A stretch of 11,238 bases of DNA, taken from the IMG/VR virus record IMGVR_UViG_2802429224_000011; one strand, given 5' to 3'. This DNA is from a virus. Its lineage: Duplodnaviria; Heunggongvirae; Uroviricota; Caudoviricetes. Numbering within the stretch: position 1 is the first letter of the stretch; every line of letters begins with the position of its first letter. Under the pieces are notes generated by a model. That model was not told the DNA's origin. It saw only the letters and a program-made list of their open reading frames with translations, and did not search any database. Made by a program: the position numbers and the translations under genes. Positions 1,100 to 11,238 of the stretch are shown here, one piece after another.

Positions 1100-1139
1100 A
1101 CCGCTATAATATGACAACTTGTTATTTGCATTTTCTGAG

Positions 1140-1718
1140 TTAATTACTGCTAATTGCAATCGCTCTGATTGAGCGTAAATCATCAAGATTATTCAGTTCT
1201 TCCTTCATCTCCCGCTGACGTTGATAAATCTCGTCATTGCGATCGACCTGTGCCTGCGCCATTACTACCGCCAGTTCTTCCAGTTCCGGCATCGACAGTT
1301 TCACCTGTTGATTATTGGCGTCACCCCATGCAAGGGCGGTTCGTGCCGTATCGGATTTCGCCGCCATTACTACCGGATAAAGACGAGCCAGTGAGTCGGA
1401 GCCAGCATTCCAGGTGCGGCCGTTCCATTCGAACGTGAACGGCTGCGCCTCCTGTTCTGTGCGCCACGCCTCGATTTCCATCTTTTTGGCATCTTTTGCC
1501 TCTGCGATAAGTTCGGGCGTGACGGTGAACGGGGCAATTTCACCCCATTTGCCGCTCTGTAACTCTTCCCAGATGCGCTGGCCTGTCGGTGCGGTATCAT
1601 CCTGCATGGCGGTATACAGGACGAATTCCGTTTCACCTTCAAATAACACCTCGCAGTCAACCGCACCATTTTCAAGATAATGCGCGTTTCTGATGCCTTT
1701 TACCGCTCTGATTTTCAT
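1140..1718 (-). CDS. Putative tail fibre chaperone/assembly protein (DUF4376-like), partner of the upstream Stf-type fibre
   Basis: 192-aa ORF starting 13 nt after the tail fibre stop with RBS GGGGAA 7 nt upstream of ATG. Position immediately downstream of a tail fibre is typical for fibre chaperones. Lacks the classical Tfa C-terminal ...W-P motif, so the functional call rests on position and weak resemblance. Confidence 0.55.
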   Translation of the reverse strand: MKIRAVKGIRNAHYLENGAVDCEVLFEGETEFVLYTAMQDDTAPTGQRIWEELQSGKWGEIAPFTVTPELIAEAKDAKKMEIEAWRTEQEAQPFTFEWNGRTWNAGSDSLARLYPVVMAAKSDTARTALAWGDANNQQVKLSMPELEELAVVMAQAQVDRNDEIYQRQREMKEELNNLDDLRSIRAIAISSN

Positions 1719-1731
1719 GTTTTATTCCCCG

Positions 1732-4700
1732 TTACTCGATGCGCACAAACAGGCATGTTAAAGCCCCATTGGTAGCCACGCCGCTGTAACCGGACAGCGC
1801 CATATAACGCCCCGGAAAACTGTAGCTGCCTGCACCATAAACTGTAAGTTGTGCTGAATAGGTGTATGAGCCCGTCTCACTGAACATGGATGCGATACGA
1901 ACCGGCCCCAGACGGGACCCCGGCACCACGTCGCCCAGACCAATTTTTATGGACGTATCACCCGTCTCAGTTCCCTGATATGCCGCCAGTATTGGCACAC
2001 CAACCGCCGGATATTTGTAATATGAGCCTGAGCCCGCCATCCTGGACAACAGGTACGCCAGTGAATCTCCGTCGTAGACAACTACCCGCGATGACATGTT
2101 CCAGCTGTTATCGCTGTCGTTGTACCGGTACTGCATATAGTGAATACAGTGTTCACCCTGATAATACTGGTTGTAACACATCAGGGTTTTAAATTTGCGG
2201 ACTGTGTCAGATTCACTGTTGGCGTACGGGGACCACATCACGTCAATAATGCCGTTAAATTGCGTGGTACCGGTAAGCAGTTGTGATGAATCTGTAATAC
2301 TGACCGCATACCGCCCCGGCGTGACTTTCTTCAGCCATTCAACGAAATCAGACAGTCCCTCAAACGCCAGGGCTTCAGTGCTGGCAAATGCCTGACCAAA
2401 TCCATGCATACCGGACAGCGCCAGCCTGCCCGGTGTACGGTCGCGGATATCGCTCTGGGGTTCCATCGTCGCAGCCGCTTTCAGCTCAAGCTCCGTGCGC
2501 ATGGCTTCAGGTGTGTCCAGTGCCAGTAATGCGCGGGCTTTTTCTGACAGCTGCGCCAGTAAAATCCGGCCCTCTTCACTGAAATAAGGCAGTGTGTTTT
2601 CTTCCGGTGTTATCTGGCTGACAGCCGTTAACACGCCATTAAGCGGCTGTTTACCTGCCAGTGCATTAGTGACCGTTGTCGCAAAGTTCGGGTCATTACC
2701 CAGCGCCGCTGCCAGCTCGTTCAGCGTGTCCAGGGCTTCAGGTGATGAGTCAACCAGCGCAGCGAGCAGTTTGCGGACAAACGCCGCATTGGCTATTTCA
2801 TTACCTGCTGCATCATCCGGTGGTGTTGGCGTGGACGGTGTTCCGGTCAGTGCCGGGCTTTTCAGTGGCGCACGGGTTTCAATCAGCGCCCTGAGTGAGG
2901 CCTCATCAACCTTCAGGTTTTCCCAGCCAACCAGATAACCACCATCTGATGACACCGCGCAACGGTTATAATAAATATGACCATTAACACCGTAATAAAT
3001 AATTATCTTATAGGCATTCTCATCATTCGGGCTGGTTTTAGGTTGTGGCCAGATAATTTCAATAACACCGTTTGTCTGTATGCCAGGCACCACCACATTT
3101 GTGTCCGCAAATACGGCATAACGACCGGGTTTTGCTGTTTTTACCCAGCGGAGAAAATCAGTTCCTGATTTAAATTCTTTTCTGTCGCTGCTGGAAAACA
3201 GGCTCCCGAAGCCGAACATACCAGGAATCGCCAGTCGGCCTTCGGTGCGGTCGTAAATATTCTCCTGTGCATCCTTCTGTGCTGCATTGCCAAGTTGTGG
3301 CGTCAGATTCGTCCAGGTGACCGGGGCGGTGATATTATCGCCACGAACGGTCATAAGAATCCGTCCGTCTTTTCCAAAAAACAGAACCAGCTTTGTTGCT
3401 GTCTGGCTGGTTTTGTCGCCCCAGCCATTATCCAGCCAGATAATTTCTGTTATCCCGGTTGTTTCTTCCGTTTGTGTGGAAAAGGTGTAATACCGTCCCG
3501 GATGTACGTTGTGCGCAGTTTTGGCTATGGTCACCATATCGCGGGCAATAATTGTCGTGCCTCCGGGATTCGTCATTCCGTAACCAAATGCACCAGGCAG
3601 CGCAACACGACCTTCCGTGCTGTCGTAAAGGTCTGTCTGTATGTCCCTTACCGCTGCGCTTTTCAGCTCAAGCTCATTACGCATGGCTTCCACTGTGGCC
3701 TGTGCCAGCAGTGACCGGGCTTTTTCTGACAGCGGAGACAGTGAAGCATTCCCGTCCTGATTAAAGCACAGAAGATTATCCGCCCGTTCTTCCAGATTAC
3801 TGATTGCGGTTAACACGTCACTGAGTGGTTGTTTACCCGCCAGCGCGTTCATGATTGTTGTCGCAAACTCCGGGTCATTGCCCAGCGCAGCTGCCAGCTC
3901 ATTCAGCGTGTCCAGGGCTTCCGGGGACGAGTCAACCAGTGCAGCGAGCAGTTTGCGGACAAATGCCGCGTTCGCTGTTTCCAGACCGGCAGCATCGTCC
4001 GGTGGGGTTGGTGTGGTGGGCGTGCCGGTGAATGCCGGGCTGTCCAGCGGCGCTTTTGTTTTCGTCTCGTCCATGACGGTTTTGACGGCCTTCGGTGTGG
4101 CTGCCAGTTCTTCGCTGTCGTTATCCGTATCACTACAGAGTTGCACCAGGCCTTTTTCTGTCGTGGAAGCATTGCTTCCCTTCAACTCATCAACTATCCG
4201 TTGCGCCTCGTCCCTGTGCTGTTTTGCGCCCTGCTCGCTTTTTGCTGCCGCTTCTGCACTGGCCTTTGCCTCGCCGCTCAGCGTTGCGACTTCACCGAGT
4301 TTATCAACAGCCTTATCGACGATTTTGTCTGCGTCCTTAACGGCCTGCTCTGCGCGAGCCGCATCCTGTGTGGCAGATGATGCCAGCTGTGCCACCTGCC
4401 TTTTATCTTCAGCAACGGCCTCGGCGTTCTGCTGTACGTTATCCGCCAGCGTCTCGCAGTCGCTCTTGATTTGTTGCGCATCAGCGACATGTTGCCCGGC
4501 CTGTCGTTCGCTTTCCGCTGCCGCCTCCGCGCTCTGCTGCGCCTGCGCCACCAGTTCTTCGAACCGCTTAACGACATCCGGTTTTAAATCGCCTTCATCG
4601 AGGGCGGTCAGAAAGTCGTTCAGTGTGCCGGGCTTTGAATCGTCGTAAACCGAAATATCACCAACACAATATTCTCTTTCAATACATGACCGAAGATAAA

Positions 4701-4878
4701 CGTCATATCTTCCGGTCTGAGCCTCAAATGCATATTCTCCTGCCGGCCCCGTCAAAACTGTTGCCACCGTTCTCATAACCACTGCGGATGTATTCTGTCG
4801 GGCTTTCAGAATAATATGGTATCCGGACATGGGGAGTCCCGTGCCATCCGTCAGCACCCCCGAAATTAATACAGACAT
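1732..4878 (-). CDS. Side tail fibre protein, lambdoid Stf-type, with duplicated collar repeats and three tip modules
   Basis: N-terminus MSVLISGVLTDGTG...ILKARQNTSAVV...YDDSKPGTLNDFL matches the N-terminal domain of E. coli prophage Stf proteins such as StfR. A/E/Q-rich helical shaft. Two copies of the fibre collar motif KGLVQL...ATPKAVK / APLxSPAxTGTP(T/S)TPTPP...AALVDSSPEALDTLNELAAALGNDP(E/N)FATT. RBS AGGAA 6 nt upstream of ATG, 24 nt after the D stop. Confidence 0.9.
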   Translation of the reverse strand: MSVLISGVLTDGTGLPMSGYHIILKARQNTSAVVMRTVATVLTGPAGEYAFEAQTGRYDVYLRSCIEREYCVGDISVYDDSKPGTLNDFLTALDEGDLKPDVVKRFEELVAQAQQSAEAAAESERQAGQHVADAQQIKSDCETLADNVQQNAEAVAEDKRQVAQLASSATQDAARAEQAVKDADKIVDKAVDKLGEVATLSGEAKASAEAAAKSEQGAKQHRDEAQRIVDELKGSNASTTEKGLVQLCSDTDNDSEELAATPKAVKTVMDETKTKAPLDSPAFTGTPTTPTPPDDAAGLETANAAFVRKLLAALVDSSPEALDTLNELAAALGNDPEFATTIMNALAGKQPLSDVLTAISNLEERADNLLCFNQDGNASLSPLSEKARSLLAQATVEAMRNELELKSAAVRDIQTDLYDSTEGRVALPGAFGYGMTNPGGTTIIARDMVTIAKTAHNVHPGRYYTFSTQTEETTGITEIIWLDNGWGDKTSQTATKLVLFFGKDGRILMTVRGDNITAPVTWTNLTPQLGNAAQKDAQENIYDRTEGRLAIPGMFGFGSLFSSSDRKEFKSGTDFLRWVKTAKPGRYAVFADTNVVVPGIQTNGVIEIIWPQPKTSPNDENAYKIIIYYGVNGHIYYNRCAVSSDGGYLVGWENLKVDEASLRALIETRAPLKSPALTGTPSTPTPPDDAAGNEIANAAFVRKLLAALVDSSPEALDTLNELAAALGNDPNFATTVTNALAGKQPLNGVLTAVSQITPEENTLPYFSEEGRILLAQLSEKARALLALDTPEAMRTELELKAAATMEPQSDIRDRTPGRLALSGMHGFGQAFASTEALAFEGLSDFVEWLKKVTPGRYAVSITDSSQLLTGTTQFNGIIDVMWSPYANSESDTVRKFKTLMCYNQYYQGEHCIHYMQYRYNDSDNSWNMSSRVVVYDGDSLAYLLSRMAGSGSYYKYPAVGVPILAAYQGTETGDTSIKIGLGDVVPGSRLGPVRIASMFSETGSYTYSAQLTVYGAGSYSFPGRYMALSGYSGVATNGALTCLFVRIE
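2677..2871. repeat. Intragenic direct repeat copy 2 (collar-encoding) within the tail fibre gene
   Basis: About 195 bp, roughly 85-90% identical to 3859-4053 (offset 1182 bp), with perfect runs such as gcagcgagcagtttgcggacaaa and ttcagcgtgtccagggcttc. Also visible as near-identical antisense ORF translations (GSLPSAAASSFSVSRASGDESTSAASSLRTNAA in ORFs 2594..2938 and 3851..4648). Weaker similarity continues to about 2400. Confidence 0.85.
3859..4053. repeat. Intragenic direct repeat copy 1 (collar-encoding) within the tail fibre gene
   Basis: Partner of 2677-2871. Weaker similarity (about 75-80%) continues to about 3590, covering the ELELK...DRTxGR(L/V)A motif. Confidence 0.85.
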
Positions 4879-4902
4879 GTTTATTTCCTGATTCAGAAAA
4901 CA

Positions 4903-5991
4903 TTAACCAAAATAATTGACGCCTTTTTTCTTGCCACTGGCTTTCCCCTTTGCAGAAATATCCGTGGTCAGTGACAGATTCAGCGTAAATCCCTGTCCCG
5001 GTACCAGTGAAAACTCCACAGACTCAGCCTGCCAGTGATGGTCCTCACGCACACCAAATCCCTGCGTGACAAAACGCATCTCCGCCCCTGCTTTCAGCAG
5101 TTCCGGCCTGCAGGGCAACGTTATCGTCATCTGGCGTCCGGCTTTCTGCACACGTTTAACCTTCGACTCTGCACAGTGTTTTGCGGTGCCCTGGTCAGGC
5201 TGGGTAAACGGATGCCGCTTATCTGTTGACTCCACGTCAACTTTAACTTCACGTGTGCGTCCGTCACGAGCATCAAAATACCGGACCCCAACTTTCCCGC
5301 TCTTTTTATCCCCCTTCGCACCACCCGCAGCGCCCTGTCGCTCACCTTCACGATAATCCCAGTCTGATACCATACCCGGCGTAATGGTTATCTCGGGCGC
5401 ATTTCTGCCCCCCGTACTCTGTGATGCCCCGTATTCCAGAAATAACCAGTAGCCATTGGTCGGTTTACTGGTGGCGCCGTACATACCTGCAATGCGGGAT
5501 AAGAGGGCAGCATCAGATTCTGATGACTGCATCACCCACGGGATATGAATATCAGCAAGCACCGATGAGACGCGCGCCACCAGATTATTTTCAGTGGCGA
5601 TGGTTTTCACCAGGTCGCCCAGTGTAATATCGCTGAAAGCCCGGGTTTTCAGTGCGGTCACGTCTGCGCCATGTTTTGACGCATTCATGGGGGCTGCGGT
5701 GGCATAAATGGTGATTCGGCGGGGAGGACCTCCACTTGCCACCTGACAGACGGTAAAACTGCCTTTATTTACCAGGTTTCCGTTGAATCCCAGCCCCAGC
5801 GTTAATACCGCGCCTTTTGGTGGCAGCGCCATCGTCTCACTGAACAGGGTTATCATCAGTTCATCGGAGCGCTTTGTGGCAGCACCATTATCGGTATATC
5901 GCAGCTCAGCCAGCCCCCGCTTTATGGCCTTCGTGATATCCTCACCCTCTGCTGTCAGGCTGAAATCCGGCTGATACTCATTCAGTCCCAT
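4903..5991 (-). CDS. P2 gpD-like tail protein (late control gene D family)
   Basis: 362 aa with the gpD-family motif ...QSSESDAALLSRIAGMYGA.... Position directly after X in a FI-FII-E-T-U-X-D order. RBS AAGGAG upstream. Start overlaps the X stop. Confidence 0.88.
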   Translation of the reverse strand: MGLNEYQPDFSLTAEGEDITKAIKRGLAELRYTDNGAATKRSDELMITLFSETMALPPKGAVLTLGLGFNGNLVNKGSFTVCQVASGGPPRRITIYATAAPMNASKHGADVTALKTRAFSDITLGDLVKTIATENNLVARVSSVLADIHIPWVMQSSESDAALLSRIAGMYGATSKPTNGYWLFLEYGASQSTGGRNAPEITITPGMVSDWDYREGERQGAAGGAKGDKKSGKVGVRYFDARDGRTREVKVDVESTDKRHPFTQPDQGTAKHCAESKVKRVQKAGRQMTITLPCRPELLKAGAEMRFVTQGFGVREDHHWQAESVEFSLVPGQGFTLNLSLTTDISAKGKASGKKKGVNYFG

Positions 5992-6200
5992 AACTGAAAC
6001 GTCTCCTTCACTTCCGGTTCATATACCCAGTCCGGCAACACGATTTCCACTCCCGCCGGATAGACCGGACCAAGGTCAGCCAGTCCGGGATTGGCTTCCA
6101 GTACCGCCGCCAGTGACTGGTTAAGCCCGGTACTGCCATAGTGTCTCTGGCAGATGTCATCCAGCATATCGCCGTCAGTAGTCCGCCAGTTTTTCGCCAT
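5982..6200 (-). CDS. P2 gpX-like tail protein X (LysM-like small tail protein)
   Basis: 72 aa. GDMLDDICQRHYG...LEANPGLADLG...GVEIVLPD matches the gpX pattern (GDTLDAICxRYYG...ANPGLA). Overlaps U by 26 nt and D by 10 nt. Confidence 0.85.
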   Translation of the reverse strand: MAKNWRTTDGDMLDDICQRHYGSTGLNQSLAAVLEANPGLADLGPVYPAGVEIVLPDWVYEPEVKETFQLWD

Positions 6201-6663
6201 AGTATTTCAGCTCCAGTGTGAACGTTTTGTTCTTCGGCGCACCGCCGGGAAGAAAGGACGTGGTGTTATCTGAATAGGCAGTTGCCACGAAATACCCCAT
6301 CACATCACCTGTGCTCGAGACCAGAAGATGCGGGGCCGGATTGTCATCCACCATCTGAACCAGTGTATCAAGAGCGTCCATTCCCACACCGTCACGAAAT
6401 CCTGCATGCGCCATACCTTCAAGGGTTATTGTTCTGGCCCCCTTGCCGGTATACTGCAGCAGGTCGTTTTTTCCGATAAGCTGTTGTTCATCCCATCGCC
6501 ATTCCATCGTGCGCTTCATGGCGTTATAAGCAGCAGTATCAATACTGAATTCAAACTCACCAAACGACAGCATGACGCGAGAGGCGACATCCGTTAATGA
6601 TCCCACCGCGTCCCATGCTTCACGCTCAAGCCGGTTTACGCCCCAGCCCAGCAAATCCACCAT
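6175..6663 (-). CDS. P2 gpU-like tail protein
   Basis: gpU-family layout (F.F..D......EWRW...G......TGKGxxTITLEG...FLPGGxPK..TF.L.L). Start called at ATG 6661-6663 (protein MVDLLGWG...), preceded by GGGGG 7 nt upstream inside the T 3' end. The ORF track's 6669 start is an upstream GTG. Confidence 0.82.
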   Translation of the reverse strand: MVDLLGWGVNRLEREAWDAVGSLTDVASRVMLSFGEFEFSIDTAAYNAMKRTMEWRWDEQQLIGKNDLLQYTGKGARTITLEGMAHAGFRDGVGMDALDTLVQMVDDNPAPHLLVSSTGDVMGYFVATAYSDNTTSFLPGGAPKNKTFTLELKYYGEKLADY

Positions 6664-6665
6664 AT

Positions 6666-8318
6666 TCACCCCCAGAATGCATCACCATCAGTCATGCGGG
6701 AACGCTGACCAAAATTAATATCTCCCAGATTTTTCGTTACCCTGTCTGCCAGTTGTCCGGCATCCTCGCCGGGCTTCTGAGTGATGTTAAATTCCGCCCG
6801 TATCTGATACGTGGGTTTTACTTCCACCTGGCTGACACTGCCGGGGGTATACTGAAGAGCCGAGAGAGGATCCGAATTACCCTGCCCCTGAACTGCTGCA
6901 GGTAGTCCGTCAATATAGGTGCGGGATTTCTCTTTTATCGCCTTAAAATCAGGTTCTTCTTTCGGCCCCAGCAGAGGGTCGAGAAATGCATCAAACTTTT
7001 TATCGTCATGATTCCAGGGGAGATAACCGCGGGTGTCTTTATAGGCCTGTACAACCTGTTTTGTCAGGTCAGGATTTTGCCTGAGCAGTTCATCAAACCA
7101 TTCACCCTGACCGTTTTTCTGCGCCACTGCTCTCGCCAGCTCCGGCGACCCCATTTTTGCCAGATACTCCAGCACTTCCCGTCGGTCCTCTCGCGGATCA
7201 TCCGCCAGCCCCCACTCAATGGCTTTTTGTGTAATTCCGGCAAGAACTTTTCCAAATTTCCACATCCAGGCAGCCATGTCGATCAGCGCCGGCAGGGCAT
7301 CATCACGAATAAATGCCCGGATTTTTTCCAGCCCACCATTCTTAAACCAGGCCGCAAGGTCATCCGTCACCTGTTGAATATGTGGGGCAAGTTCATTACC
7401 CAGCTGTCCGCTGATTTCATCAATGGAAGAACTCAGAACATTACGGAGATTTGACAGTGCCACATGTCCCTGAACTGCGCCATCAGCCCCTGCCTTTGTC
7501 ACCAGGTTATAGCGTTTCTGCTCACTGATAAGCTCCCGATAAGTTTTCCCTGACAGACGCATCCAGGTCAGAATTTTATTGGCCTCACCACCGAACAACG
7601 CATCTGCCATCCCCGCCGCCTGCTGCTCATTCTCAACCTGCAGTAAGCGATCAAACAAAAATTCGACCTGCTCCTGGTTGTTTTTTCCGGCCATTACGCC
7701 CGCTTTCAGCCCCAGTTTACCGAATACCTCCTGAATGGCTCCTTTGTCCGTGGCACCATTATCATCGTCAAAAACCTTGTTCCGGTATTCCTCAAACAGA
7801 TCACCGATGTTTTCACCGTTTAACCCCATCTGACGGCCCAGTGAATCCCACGCCGCATAGGTTTCATAGTCCACCCCGTAGCTCCGCGCTATCCCTGCAC
7901 GCTCTGCTGTTTCCGAATTCCGGTTCAGTACCGCACTTGCACCTGCTGCCAGCGTAAGCCCGGAACCAACCGAAAGCCCCAGCCCGGTCTTAAGAACGGT
8001 CCCGGCCCACCCTTTCCAGCGAGCCAGACGTTCCGCGCGCGCCAGCTTACGGTTGAATTTGTCCTGCTCTCCGGTGGCATCATGAATTTTTTTACCCAGC
8101 TTTTCATACTGCTTTCGCAGATCAGTAATATTCTGTCCAGCCAGAACGCCAGCCTGAATTTTTCGTTTCAGTACGTCCTGCTGGCGTGTCAGACGAGCCA
8201 CTTCCTGTGTTGCCCCTGATAATCCGTGCTTCAACCCATCAACCGATTTTTTCCACGACGGATCTATCGTGCCTCCGATCCGGATATTCGCTTTAAGGTT
8301 ATCGCCCACCGTTGCCAT
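6666..8318 (-). CDS. Tail tape measure protein (gpT-like), short variant
   Basis: 550-aa protein in the position between E/E' and U. Internal Gly-rich hydrophobic segment (GWAGTVLKTGLGLSVGSGLTLAAGASAVL) typical of tape measure proteins. RBS GAGGAA 8 nt upstream of ATG. Confidence 0.82.
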   Translation of the reverse strand: MATVGDNLKANIRIGGTIDPSWKKSVDGLKHGLSGATQEVARLTRQQDVLKRKIQAGVLAGQNITDLRKQYEKLGKKIHDATGEQDKFNRKLARAERLARWKGWAGTVLKTGLGLSVGSGLTLAAGASAVLNRNSETAERAGIARSYGVDYETYAAWDSLGRQMGLNGENIGDLFEEYRNKVFDDDNGATDKGAIQEVFGKLGLKAGVMAGKNNQEQVEFLFDRLLQVENEQQAAGMADALFGGEANKILTWMRLSGKTYRELISEQKRYNLVTKAGADGAVQGHVALSNLRNVLSSSIDEISGQLGNELAPHIQQVTDDLAAWFKNGGLEKIRAFIRDDALPALIDMAAWMWKFGKVLAGITQKAIEWGLADDPREDRREVLEYLAKMGSPELARAVAQKNGQGEWFDELLRQNPDLTKQVVQAYKDTRGYLPWNHDDKKFDAFLDPLLGPKEEPDFKAIKEKSRTYIDGLPAAVQGQGNSDPLSALQYTPGSVSQVEVKPTYQIRAEFNITQKPGEDAGQLADRVTKNLGDINFGQRSRMTDGDAFWG

Positions 8319-8738
8319 AACATCGCTTCCTCTCTTCCGACTCCGCCAGCATCATTGCCACAAAATCCGTATACGGCAGCGCCATCACATCTCCGGGAGA
8401 CCACCCGAACCAGGCACCGGCACGCCGTATCGCTGTCAGGATGCTTTCTTCTTCCGCCGGACCGGCGGCAGCAAAAAAACATTAAACTGACGCTCCAGGG
8501 CCAGGTAATCACACGCTTCCATGTTCATCATGTCTGCCGCGTCCATCCCACACAGACCGGCAATCATATCCAGATCAGCCTCTGCTTCCGGTTTGTTACT
8601 CCGGCGATGCAACAGACGATCGCGGACAGTGGGCGCACGCATAGTGACGTGCGTGATCGTCTGTCCTGATGCGGTGACATACGGCACGGATAACACAATT
8701 TCCACGCTGCTGGCAGGAACACTGTTTTTTTCCGACAT
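8299..8738 (-). CDS. Predicted E+E' fusion product made by programmed -1 frameshift
   Basis: A -1 slip at TTTTTTG (minus strand, 8472-8478) opens a frame reading AAAGPAEEESILTAIRRAGAWFGWSPGDVMALPYTDFVAMMLAESEERKRCYGNGGR and stopping at TAA 8299-8301, just inside the T start. This mirrors the known P2 E/E' arrangement. Coordinates derived by hand translation. Confidence 0.6.
8436..8738 (-). CDS. P2 gpE-like tail assembly chaperone
   Basis: Motifs ...TASGQTITHVTMRAPTVRD...LDMIAGLCGMDAADMMNMEACDYLALERQ consistent with the gpE family. Start called at the second ATG (8736-8738, MSEKNSV...) because AGGAG lies 6 nt upstream of it. The ORF track's 8744 start is the alternative. Contains the TTTTTTG slippery site near its 3' end. 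Confidence 0.85.
   Translation of the reverse strand: MSEKNSVPASSVEIVLSVPYVTASGQTITHVTMRAPTVRDRLLHRRSNKPEAEADLDMIAGLCGMDAADMMNMEACDYLALERQFNVFLLPPVRRKKKAS
8472..8478 (-). other. Slippery heptamer TTTTTTG (programmed -1 ribosomal frameshift site)
   Basis: mRNA reads AAT GTT TTT TTG CTG CCG in the E frame. T-TTT-TTG is the heptamer used for the E/E' frameshift in P2-like phages. Confidence 0.6.
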
Positions 8739-8761
8739 AAGCATCTCCTTTAAAAAGAAAA

Positions 8762-8777
8762 GGCGGCCTGAGCCGCC
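8762..8777 (-). terminator. Intrinsic terminator/attenuator-like hairpin between tube and E
   Basis: On the minus strand: GGCGGC-TCAG-GCCGCC followed by UUUUCUUUUUAAA, located between the tube stop (8798-8800) and the E RBS. Confidence 0.5.
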
Positions 8778-8797
8778 TGAATGACAGGATCCCCGGA

Positions 8798-9316
8798 TTA
8801 AACCCGGATGATTTTTTTCAGATCCGCCAGAACATTAACGCCGTTAATACGACGCACAAATTCCTCCGGAATAATGCAGATGGTTTCCACACCGTCAACA
8901 GCCTGACGGTAATAACTCAGTGACATTTCCACCGTCACCGAAGCCTCTGCCTGTGACGTTGCGGGACGCGCATCCGGCGTGATACTGGTGATCATCCCCT
9001 GCAGAGTTTCCACCTGCCCGCTGGTCGCATTCCCCACCTGGTAAGCCTGGCGGACAACAATCTCCGGCGAATAAAGCCCGGCCTGTAATCCCAGCAGCGT
9101 AAGCATGGCAACATCATAACCATAAATCTTAAACGAACAGGTCAGCGCTTCCATGCCGTCATCCACTGCCACCGGTGCATCCATTGCGCCAGTTTTGATA
9201 TCCACTGTCGTGATATTAATGGCAGGTGGCGTGTATTCATGTGCCCCCTGAAGGCGGATCCCGCCAGGAAGAAATAACGCCCATGCGCGCAACAGTTTTT
9301 TTTCACCCGTAATCAT
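8798..9316 (-). CDS. P2 gpFII-like tail tube protein
   Basis: 172 aa, the same length as P2 FII as I recall it. C-terminal ...NGVNVLADLKKIIRV resembles the FII-family ending (NGVD.LAQHRRNIGL). Start overlaps the sheath stop by ATGA. Position directly after the sheath. Confidence 0.85.
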   Translation of the reverse strand: MITGEKKLLRAWALFLPGGIRLQGAHEYTPPAINITTVDIKTGAMDAPVAVDDGMEALTCSFKIYGYDVAMLTLLGLQAGLYSPEIVVRQAYQVGNATSGQVETLQGMITSITPDARPATSQAEASVTVEMSLSYYRQAVDGVETICIIPEEFVRRINGVNVLADLKKIIRV

Positions 9317-10788
9317 ACCGTCAGTTCCTCCAGCGCCAGTTTATTGTTAATCATTGCCCGCAGTGTCAGGCGCTCCAGTGGTGACTTCGGCCCAAAGTCA
9401 TAATCGATATACAACTGCCCTGCCGCCAGGGTTTCTGCAGTGTTCAGTTCATCGTTCAGCCATGCACTGCCACCGTGGATCGCGCCCAGATTTTTAAGCT
9501 GACGCATATAGGCATTAATGCTGCCAAGAATGTCGTCTGCCACATCCCGATCAAGCGGGCGATCGACATAAGGCAGCATGGCCTCCTGGATGCTGTCCTC
9601 AATCACATCTGCAGTGCGGCGTACCGGCTCAAAACGCCACTGACTGTGGGATGTGCACAGACGGTTACCCCAGTGTTTAAAACCGTCATGGCGAATAATG
9701 GTGGAGATATTTTCCATGTTCAGCAGGTTTGCCGTGCAGTTCTGCTCCCCGAGAATAAACGTATCCACCTGCTCCAGACCGGTGATATTCATCACGTCCT
9801 GGTTTGATTTGGACCACCACCACCCTTTTTCGTAATCAATACGGGCACGCAGCCCGGCAGCACGAGCCGAATATGGACGAAATATAGTTTGCCCGCTGTC
9901 ATCCGTCACTGACACGCGCGGACGCAGCAGCTCCACACGCCCACCAAATGACGCGCGCCGCTGAACCACATCCTGCGGCGTTGCCATTGAAGGCGAGTCA
10001 ATATAGGCCACAGCCCGCAGCTTCACGGCATACGTTTCCAGCGCCTTTGCCACGCCATCATCCTCACTGTACCCCGTGGCAATGAGGATGCGCGGTTGAT
10101 AGCCTGTCACGCCCTTACTTTCTGTCAGCGCCTCCATGGCCTGAATCACCGCCGCACGCTGTTCGGCCTCTTTCGTCTTTGTTTTACTTTCTGCGCGCAC
10201 CACAATCACCAGCGCACCAGTCTGGTCAAAAATATCTCGCAGGGCCGGGTATAATGTTCCGGCTGTGCCCAGTTTCCCTGCCTGAGTAATGGCCCCTGCC
10301 ACCACCACTGGTGTATTGACCGGGAACGCCTCATCTTCTCCGCCGGATAACGTCAGGCTGAACGGCAACACCACTTTATTTTCAGCGTCTCCTGCATTCA
10401 GGGTGCTGACAGCCGCCGTCACAGGCGAATCCCCCAGCGCATTCACCACTTCAGTCACACGGTCCGCCGTGGCGTTAACCTGGCTGTGTTCGTCCGTCCC
10501 CAGTGTTATCGTCAGGGTCGTACCTTTCAGCGAGGCCACTGTCTGCGCGTTTTGTTCTGTGGCAGCCACAGCAACAACCGAAATCTTATTACCGGCCCGA
10601 CCTTCCTGTTTCGCCGTGAAATCCAGCGCCGTTCCCAGCAGCCAGGAGCCGGCTGTGCCGGAAGCGCACACACCACCAGAGGCGTCCGGCGCTGTCCCCA
10701 CCAGGCCAATCACTGCCGTGGAGATGGTCTGCACGGCAACCGTGCCTGTCGTCAGTTCAATGGTTTCAACACCATGTAATCCGGGCAT
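9313..10788 (-). CDS. P2 gpFI-like contractile tail sheath protein, with an extra internal segment
   Basis: N-terminus MPGLHGVETIELTTGTVAVQTISTAVIGLVGTAPDASGG and C-terminus ...ETLAAGQLYIDYDFGPKSPLERLTLRAMINNKL closely mirror P2 FI termini ([34 protein letters not shown]; ...ETLKAGKLYIDYDYTP...LENLTLRQRI). Also ...ILIATGY... and WGNRLCTS motifs. RBS GGGAG upstream. Confidence 0.9.
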   Translation of the reverse strand: MPGLHGVETIELTTGTVAVQTISTAVIGLVGTAPDASGGVCASGTAGSWLLGTALDFTAKQEGRAGNKISVVAVAATEQNAQTVASLKGTTLTITLGTDEHSQVNATADRVTEVVNALGDSPVTAAVSTLNAGDAENKVVLPFSLTLSGGEDEAFPVNTPVVVAGAITQAGKLGTAGTLYPALRDIFDQTGALVIVVRAESKTKTKEAEQRAAVIQAMEALTESKGVTGYQPRILIATGYSEDDGVAKALETYAVKLRAVAYIDSPSMATPQDVVQRRASFGGRVELLRPRVSVTDDSGQTIFRPYSARAAGLRARIDYEKGWWWSKSNQDVMNITGLEQVDTFILGEQNCTANLLNMENISTIIRHDGFKHWGNRLCTSHSQWRFEPVRRTADVIEDSIQEAMLPYVDRPLDRDVADDILGSINAYMRQLKNLGAIHGGSAWLNDELNTAETLAAGQLYIDYDFGPKSPLERLTLRAMINNKLALEELTV

Positions 10789-10842: not shown

Positions 10843-11238
10843 TCAGGTATTTTGTGGCTGCTCAGGCCAGCTAATATTGTTGTAAGTGGTCTTATCCGTA
10901 ATAGCGCTGAAATCCATCGCCTGCAGCGATTTCGCGTAAATGCGGTACGCTTTGAGCTTTTCCCTGTCTTCGTCGCTGATTAAACCCAGCAGCAGGTCTT
11001 TTTCCCATTCGCTGGTCATGATACTGACCTGTTTTAACAGTGCGTCACGCTCATCTTCCGCTTTAAGTTTGTAGTCGAAAACAAATTCATCATTGCGGTA
11101 GAACCAGTATCCCGACGCCTCAATGCGACGATTAGCGGTAATATCCGGCAACTCAATCACACTTTTATTTTCCGGGCAGATTGAGGTGATGTCTTTTCCA
11201 ACCCAGACCACTTCGCCAGTTTCAACATAAATAACTTT
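10843..11238 (-). CDS. P2 gpG-like tail fibre assembly protein, 5' end lies beyond the window
   Basis: Reading frame stays open to the window edge (..KVIYVETGEVVWVGKDI..). VIELPDITANRRIEASGYWFYRNDEFV resembles P2 G ([27 protein letters not shown]). C-terminal KAYRIY...D.S......ISWPEQP matches the Tfa-family ending (KYRV.L.RVD.S.....WP..P). Confidence 0.8.
   Translation of the reverse strand, partial: KVIYVETGEVVWVGKDITSICPENKSVIELPDITANRRIEASGYWFYRNDEFVFDYKLKAEDERDALLKQVSIMTSEWEKDLLLGLISDEDREKLKAYRIYAKSLQAMDFSAITDKTTYNNISWPEQPQNT

Follow-up and report, generated by a model that had tools for sequence, protein, structure and literature searches.

Three paralogous modules and a duplicated stem in a Stf-like prophage tail fibre of probable mosaic origin

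A fibre gene with three modules and two stems

The virus record IMGVR_UViG_2802429224_000011 (IMG/VR; Caudoviricetes) was analysed as a single stretch of 11,238 nucleotides, referred to here as the window, whose minus strand carries a gene for a side tail fibre of the Stf type (1048 residues) with a gene for a DUF4376 protein immediately downstream of it (Table 1). The fibre matches tail fibre families in PHROG (e.g. phrog_2636, E=8e-283). Its exact sequence is held in the databases as WP_105288726.1 from Escherichia sp. MOD1-EC5948, and the 78 proteins clustered with it at 90% identity come from E. coli, E. marmotae and Salmonella. Several NCBI records of fibre homologues, both fragments and full-length proteins (P0001, P0003, P0005, P0120, P0121 and P0127), carry the name 'shikimate transporter', which is evidently a propagated misannotation; at one related locus (L011) a sugar/major facilitator superfamily transporter gene lies downstream of the fibre gene and may be the source of this name.

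At the N-terminus, residues 1–134 cover the full length of the PF08400 model (E=1.7e-54; 183.9 bits, cut-off 26.6), and in a PDB sequence search residues 1–93 match the 'Tail fiber protein' 9e7m (E=1.5e-17). This domain would dock the fibre on the tail. The Ala/Gln/Glu-rich segment that follows (residues 135–237) aligns with the coiled region of the 7kjk collar spike, and a strong AT skew at positions 4001–4500 covers it. The Phage_fiber_2 repeat (residues 238–277) matches residues 99–155 of Mu gpS.

A sequence-only reading of the window had proposed that the distal part of this fibre contains three paralogous modules, and this is borne out. The junction pattern D.T.GR.A..G..G.G occurs exactly three times, at residues 419–434, 543–558 and 813–828 (nucleotides 3577–3624, 3205–3252 and 2395–2442), overlapping the junction spans given earlier, which were slightly short; the DRTxGR start assigned to all three is found in the second and third modules (M2 and M3), but the first (M1) reads DSTEGR. 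Each junction is followed about 40 residues downstream by PGRY (residues 460, 584 and 854) and each module contains the expected (I/V)..(I/M)W motif, as ITEIIW, VIEIIW and IIDVMW. The additional C-terminal domain of about 120 residues that had been placed after the last module is also present, spanning residues 931–1048 behind M3 only (118 residues; hereafter CT). The pairwise alignment proposed as a check relates all three pairs of modules well above chance (BLASTP; M1–M2, 31% identity, E=1e-15; M1–M3, 29%, E=3e-8; M2–M3, 38%, E=3e-23), and in a hidden Markov model (HMM) derived from them the copies span residues 411–534, 535–665 and 805–936. Because the modules are almost unrecognisable as repeats at the DNA level, they are better described as old paralogues than as products of a recent tandem duplication. 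A fourth PGRY occurs at residue 1022, inside CT, and the domain shows a marginal BLAST match to the module (E 0.008). A degenerate fourth module was rejected as an explanation, since hhalign aligned only 10 columns with a probability of 0.9%.

M2 and M3 are not adjacent, a feature absent from the sequence-only reading. The 139-residue segment between them (residues 666–804) duplicates residues 271–410 with 73% protein identity (E=5e-57), and we refer to the two as stem A and stem B. Their DNA is 76.6% identical over 401 nt and includes a direct repeat, D1, of 254 nt at 82% identity with an in-frame spacing of 1182 nt; the longest identical run between the copies is 23 nt. Recombination across this repeat would delete M1 and M2 in frame and leave a shorter fibre with the same M3-CT tip. 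From stem to tip, the distal part consists in order of stem A, M1, M2, stem B, M3 and CT, the modules being putative knobs and CT a putative head.

Table 1. Features of the window and regional identity of the fibre. Identities are to the window fibre across seven close relatives (L001, L003–L007 and P0012).
Feature	Fibre residues	Window position	Strand	Basis	Identity in relatives
Whole side tail fibre gene (Stf-like), 1048 residues	1–1048	1732..4878	minus	Open reading frame (ORF) list and translation	
N-terminal attachment domain PF08400 (prophage tail fibre N-terminal, lambda Stf type)	1–134	4477..4878	minus	Pfam	
Ala/Gln/Glu-rich segment, presumed coiled-coil shaft	135–237	4168..4476	minus	Sequence	
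Phage_fiber_2 repeat PF03406	238–277	4048..4167	minus	Pfam, E=2.6e-15	
Stem copy A, holding APLDSPAFTGTP..AALVDSSPEALDTLNELAAALGNDP and then a helical linker	271–410	3649..4068	minus	73% identity to residues 666–804	96–99%
Module M1, putative proximal knob	411–534	3277..3648	minus	HMM mapping	86–92%
Module M2, putative knob of the before-head type; stem copy B here replaces the head	535–665	2884..3276	minus	HMM mapping	54–96%
Stem copy B, duplicate of stem copy A	666–804	2467..2883	minus	Protein and DNA repeat comparison	73–97%
Module M3, putative distal knob, penultimate domain	805–930	2089..2466	minus	HMM mapping (805–936)	41–99%
C-terminal head domain CT, 118 residues, proposed main receptor-binding domain	931–1048	1735..2088	minus	Family scaffold, beta-rich model	<=67%; no detectable match in Rac-SA53
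DUF4376 protein, 192 residues, presumed tail-fibre chaperone, immediately downstream of the fibre		1140..1718	minus	Pfam PF14301, E=4.2e-16	
gpD		4903–5991	minus		
gpX		5982–6200	minus		
gpU		6175–6669	minus		
Tape measure		6666–8318	minus		
E-type tail assembly chaperone, Phage_TAC_7 (P2 gpE-type)		8436–8744	minus		
Tube		8798–9316	minus		
Sheath		9313–10788	minus		
Caudo_TAP fibre-assembly protein, C-terminal part (partial at window edge)		10843–11211	minus		

Position of the module in its family and the origin of the fibre

The module family was collected by an exhaustive profile search over 1.84 billion cluster representatives, used in place of a word-indexed homologue search which, with M2 as query, gave 10 fragments. 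The family is small, with 106 protein clusters containing the module, and every member that could be placed by taxonomy is enterobacterial, the spread being read from cluster names and the E. coli genomes only. A genome-contig scan with a protein query produced 26 pattern matches, none confirmed by tblastn; the family alignment has no stretch conserved enough for a contig search. Among 101 near-complete copies of the module, 60 are followed by a C-terminal tail of 85–130 residues (mostly about 95–115), 11 stand directly before another module as internal tandems, and a further 11 precede a stem copy of about 139 residues and then another module. The remaining 19 are last copies whose tails fall outside the 85–130 residue range, some because the protein is a truncated fragment and others because the tail is much longer. 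In none of the complete proteins examined does the module form the C-terminus. The usual position of the module on these counts appears to be penultimate, just before a terminal head of about 105 residues.

Conservation in the module is highest at the junction Q..DIYDRT.GR.A.PG.FG.G and at PGRY, FYG and one Trp, and the sequence separating these is variable. The conserved positions, mostly Gly, Pro and aromatic, look structural and form no catalytic-looking pattern. Pfam gave nothing below E=0.04 over 36 family members, and a PDB sequence search with a profile of module and CT returned only a spurious ice-binding protein (E=0.25). The searches that might have exposed the modules as repeats of a known shaft or structural domain thus came back empty for Pfam and PDB sequences and weak at the level of fold, which does not strictly contradict the sequence-only reading. 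Module (about 125 residues) and head (about 105) together make up a recurring distal unit that is uncatalogued in Pfam. The module profile also matches long proteins weakly in many short stretches, at profile positions of about 45–86 (PGRY to IIW); these include P0032 (2775 residues, 23 stretches), P0086, P0091–P0097, P0101–P0106 and P0111–P0115, and in P0097 profile positions 48–118 recur as four consecutive copies of about 90 residues. Such matches may reflect either remote kinship with a family of repeats or an artefact of composition.

The three modules of the window fibre belong to subtypes that differ in position when each is compared by BLAST with all family copies. Relatives of M1 above 45% identity are in every case the first member of a tandem pair. 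Relatives of M2 occur internally and also directly before a head, as in P0002, which is 91% identical to M2 and continues into a CT of 98 residues, and in P0026 (62% identical), where the copy is terminal too. M3-type copies are always terminal and are followed by 112–119 residues. The heads themselves, across 33 aligned terminal representatives, form one domain family with the scaffold PxVGGLILAAY...RG....GSRL...LPGxYxALSG...GLFxRxA. Fibres of both parental types are found among the relatives. P0016 (571 residues) and P0017 (530 residues) have a module-module-head architecture, and a lambdoid prophage of E. coli 08-00022 (gpJ, Lom, fibre, DUF4376) encodes a 696-residue fibre with a single module, to which residues 667–1048 of the window fibre (stem-M3-CT) are 90.6% identical over 382 residues, with 98.4% nucleotide identity across the DNA of CT.

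Because the subtype positions, the double-knob fibres and the single-module 08-00022 fibre match the two halves of the window fibre, we favour an origin by fusion. The segment comprising N-terminus, coil, stem A, M1 and M2 would derive from a double-knob fibre that lost its head, and would have been joined right after GWENLK to the stem B, M3 and CT of an ordinary single-knob lambdoid Stf. The module would be present three times because two fibre types fused at the duplicated stem, and the extra stem and two knobs would add about 395 residues to the length of the fibre. Comparable module-stem-module-head concatenations are seen in P0013, P0018 and P0022, and P0014 strings three stem-module units together. 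Recombination at the conserved stem therefore appears to be a general route of length change in these fibres. At least 80% of the fibre query is covered in 21 E. coli genomes and intact three-module ORFs are present in many genomes, which suggests that the three-module architecture is maintained. Overall, we consider it probable that the gene encodes a fused-mosaic, Stf-like fibre in which the modules are normally penultimate knobs and CT makes the primary receptor contact. The product would be a homotrimeric side tail fibre of a P2-like prophage in cryptic-clade Escherichia.

Candidate receptor contacts and the role of the internal modules

Identity to the window fibre varies strongly by region among its close relatives (Table 1). 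In L003, L004 and P0013 M3 is 98–99% identical up to ...PILAAYQGT, with a mosaic breakpoint at the start of CT, and identity then collapses inside CT, where the changes are grouped in 3–4 segments between the invariant stretches IGLGD..PGS.LG, FPGRY.ALSG and CLFVRIE. This arrangement, variable segments on a fixed scaffold that are exchanged as a unit, suggests a receptor-binding head. As the most variable region of a fibre whose M3 can be 98–99% identical, CT is proposed as the likeliest main determinant of specificity, with its variable segments making the primary receptor contact. A comparable arrangement is described for R-pyocin fibres, in which the C-terminal foot defines the subtype (PMC11871291). 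M1 shows no cassette turnover of the kind seen in M2 (see below), and its conservation and first-in-tandem position fit a structural role. It would act as a spacer, and M3 and especially M2 may add accessory contacts.

We modelled M3 and CT together with AlphaFold2. A single sequence gave a predicted local distance difference test score (pLDDT) of 37, which was unusable, and a 36-row alignment was used instead, yielding a monomer model with a mean pLDDT of 84.8. The core of M3 is predicted as one helix packed on about five beta strands (pLDDT of about 85–90), and is connected by a short helix to a beta-rich CT (pLDDT 90–97). A Foldseek search with this model found no PDB match below E=0.1. Matches to fibre domains at the level of fold were weak and without per-domain resolution, and hits in the viral structure library were limited to fibres of phages Av-05 and Goslar that are also related in sequence.

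Several observations weigh against assigning specificity to CT within a fused fibre of passive knobs. The junction segment of the M3-CT model is uncertain (pLDDT 59–72) and the model is of a monomer; a low score at this point would fit a joint that depends on trimerisation. The DUF4376 protein is 72–98% identical by segment among relatives in which CT is at most 67% identical, and since the two barely co-vary, co-variation did not single out the partner domain of the chaperone, whose binding surface is probably the conserved scaffold. In M2, near-identical flanks enclose a core, beginning directly behind ...PGMFGFG and reaching ...GWENLK, that is exchanged as a cassette, and eight fibres show at least four alleles of it. 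Since a purely structural spacer would not predict such exchange, an accessory binding role for M2 is plausible. Finally, the assignment of receptor binding to CT is itself a prediction from sequence and model.

The exchange of M2 bears most directly on the proposal of the sequence-only reading that three receptor-binding-like tips in series provide multivalent or broadened recognition. In its fullest form each module, or at least M2 and M3 together with CT, would be an independent lateral receptor-binding site, allowing the fibre to engage several surface structures or to bind with higher avidity. The cores of M2 (54–96%) and M3 (41–99%) are indeed exchanged as cassettes between conserved flanks, the three-module architecture is intact in many genomes, and the second knob of R-type pyocins (Knob2) has been suggested to contribute to binding beside the lectin-like foot (PMC11871291). 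However, M1 is conserved at 86–92% and its subtype never adjoins a head, the module almost never ends a protein, variability is greatest in the terminal CT, the conserved module residues have a structural look, and no lectin or carbohydrate-binding family was matched in Pfam or PDB sequence searches. As had been proposed, the modules are paralogues located distally in a tail fibre, but they are not three complete tips, M1 and M2 being without a head; accessory binding by M2, and with it a degree of multivalency, survives from the proposal, and multivalency of the whole fibre we judge unlikely. The broader idea that receptors are bound laterally and functionally by the internal knobs, above all by M2, and that stringing together of stems and knobs by recombination is a general route by which enterobacterial prophages obtain multi-specific fibres, is likewise doubtful. 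If it were true, the module of about 125 residues would represent a new class of exchangeable host-range cassette with joints at DIYDRTxGRLAxPGxFGxG and GWENLK, and a receptor-binding M2 would make the fibre a natural example of serial multivalent recognition.

Alternatively, the fusion may have been a recombination accident in which M1 and M2 were carried along with no function beyond leaving folding undisturbed. In its favour, the fibre genes of this family are highly mosaic, with one, two or three modules and even the three stem-module units of P0014. Against this, the three-module ORF is intact across E. coli, E. marmotae, Salmonella and cryptic Escherichia and in Mu-like and P2-like prophages as well as Rac-SA53, and turnover of M2 alleles has left the flanks and the reading frame intact, which makes neutral carriage quite improbable. 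The remaining suggestion, that the internal modules are a reservoir of alternative tips, each brought to the terminus by deletion or by a programmed rearrangement of the Mu G or P1 C kind, is largely refuted and scarcely credible: the stem direct repeat described above could mediate an in-frame deletion, but this would drop M1 and M2, keep M3-CT and alter length but leave specificity unchanged; the head domain by which tips are completed elsewhere is missing from M1 and M2; and no switching mechanism was found, with no inverted repeat pairs within positions 1100–5000 (the sole repeat being direct) and no invertase in a Pfam scan of the ten larger ORFs, the smaller ORFs lying outside that scan.

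Chaperone, genomic setting and comparison with known systems

The fibre and DUF4376 genes form a pair in every intact related locus examined. In Alteromonas phages V22 and A5 the tail-fibre chaperones are proteins of the DUF4376 family, which are able to cap the distal head where a fibre consists of one or more knobs and a head (PMC10579305), and the protein encoded in the window may similarly help to fold or cap the distal end of the fibre. The pair recurs in a Mu-like prophage of E. coli ETEC1732 (L007), where it adjoins com and mom, in phage Rac-SA53 (L001), whose fibre is 75.6% identical over its full length, and, as single-module versions, in the lambdoid gpJ-lom-stf position in prophages including that of E. 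coli 08-00022 (L012); the loci listed for this spread are L007, L012, L008–L010 and L001. Fibre and DUF4376 gene thus appear to be a horizontally exchanged host-recognition cassette shared across P2-like, Mu-like and lambdoid prophages and Rac-SA53.

All tail genes of the window are minus-strand genes and together constitute a contractile tail module of the P2 type, with the fibre gene after gpD. The E-type tail assembly chaperone ORF lies between tube and tape measure (8318–8798), which is where a programmed -1 frameshift (E/E') is used in P2-like phages. A syntenic prophage of E. coli 52F4 (L003, about 92% nucleotide identity) has a separate P2 H-like 'tail-collar fiber' and Caudo_TAP chaperone upstream of the sheath (L003 17734–19667). 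It is therefore probable that the phage has a P2 H-like fibre as well as the Stf-like one, the latter in an unusual position after gpD. In some genomes of Shiga toxin-producing E. coli, the fibre, sheath and gpW genes are annotated as truncated pseudogenes and DUF4376 is intact (L002 3885–5849, E. coli STEC308); L002 occupies the same trp/ompW locus and represents the same prophage in decay. At the other end of the window two plus-strand genes encode a glycine-zipper 2TM/TraT-like protein (1–513), for which the PHROGs family label 'DNA methyltransferase' looks wrong, and a DUF5384 protein (526–1071). The region of this pair has a GC content of 0.40–0.44 compared with about 0.53 in the tail genes, and in E. 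coli 52F4 the same pair is situated where the prophage ends, close to a truncated ompW. Both genes probably represent prophage cargo.

Neither the module nor the CT of the window fibre could be related by sequence to a catalogued family. In Mu, tips are switched by inversion of the G segment and the fibre genes stand beside Gin and the G-segment boundaries. No such system was found at the window fibre, and the inverted repeats and serine invertase that define invertible-segment systems (Mu G, P1 C, Min/Pin) were not found here within positions 1100–5000 and among the ten larger ORFs, respectively. Alignment of the module-CT profile with Mu gpS and S' (PDB 5YVQ and 8JU3) by hhalign gave probabilities of 0.1%. 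The R-type pyocins R1 and R2 have fibres composed of knob1, knob2 and a lectin-like foot (PDB 6CL6 and 6CU2). The window fibre matches these only weakly at the level of fold, without per-domain resolution, and the pyocin chains were matched in PDB sequence searches neither by the whole fibre nor by the module-CT profile; chaperone family and N-terminal attachment domain differ as well. Likeness to such knob-and-foot fibres is thus one of architecture together with a weak match of fold, and is no demonstration of homology.

Lambda Stf is similar in its PF08400 N-terminal domain, Phage_fiber_2 repeat and stem motifs, and is matched by the window fibre in tblastn over residues 1–786 in pieces. 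It differs in that it has no match to the modules or CT, in that the window chaperone is of the DUF4376 family and not a Tfa of the Caudo_TAP type, and in position, the window gene following a P2-like gpD in place of gpJ/lom; single-module relatives with DUF4376 do follow gpJ-lom.

The present analysis sets domain boundaries for a fibre family labelled in databases only as 'prophage tail fiber N-terminal domain-containing protein', and indicates that its module and head of about 105 residues, always accompanied by the DUF4376 chaperone, move between lambdoid, Mu-like and P2-like prophages. Natural recombination joints follow GFG where a module starts, GWENLK where it ends and AAYQGT where the head starts, and these are obvious splice points for host-range engineering in phages or tailocins. 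The value of these findings is mainly practical, for annotation and fibre engineering, and would be greater if the internal knobs prove to bind receptors.

The closest published parallel is the fibre systems of Alteromonas phages V22 (gp26) and A5 (gp8), with which the window shares a DUF4376 gene immediately downstream of its fibre too (PMC10579305). Those fibres are described as consisting of shoulder, stem, neck, knob(s) and distal head, with an extra knob in phage A5 created by insertion, and fibre and chaperone move together between unrelated phage types (PMC10579305), as seen here. In fibres of this type the central knob(s) are structurally like those of R2 pyocin and a lectin-like distal head binds the receptor; the CT of the window fibre, for its part, is modelled as a beta-rich domain. 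The comparison is made through the published description, and the window fibre differs in having three knobs and a duplicated stem. It is a fresh, well-delimited example of the knob multiplication and cassette exchange already known in phage tail fibres.

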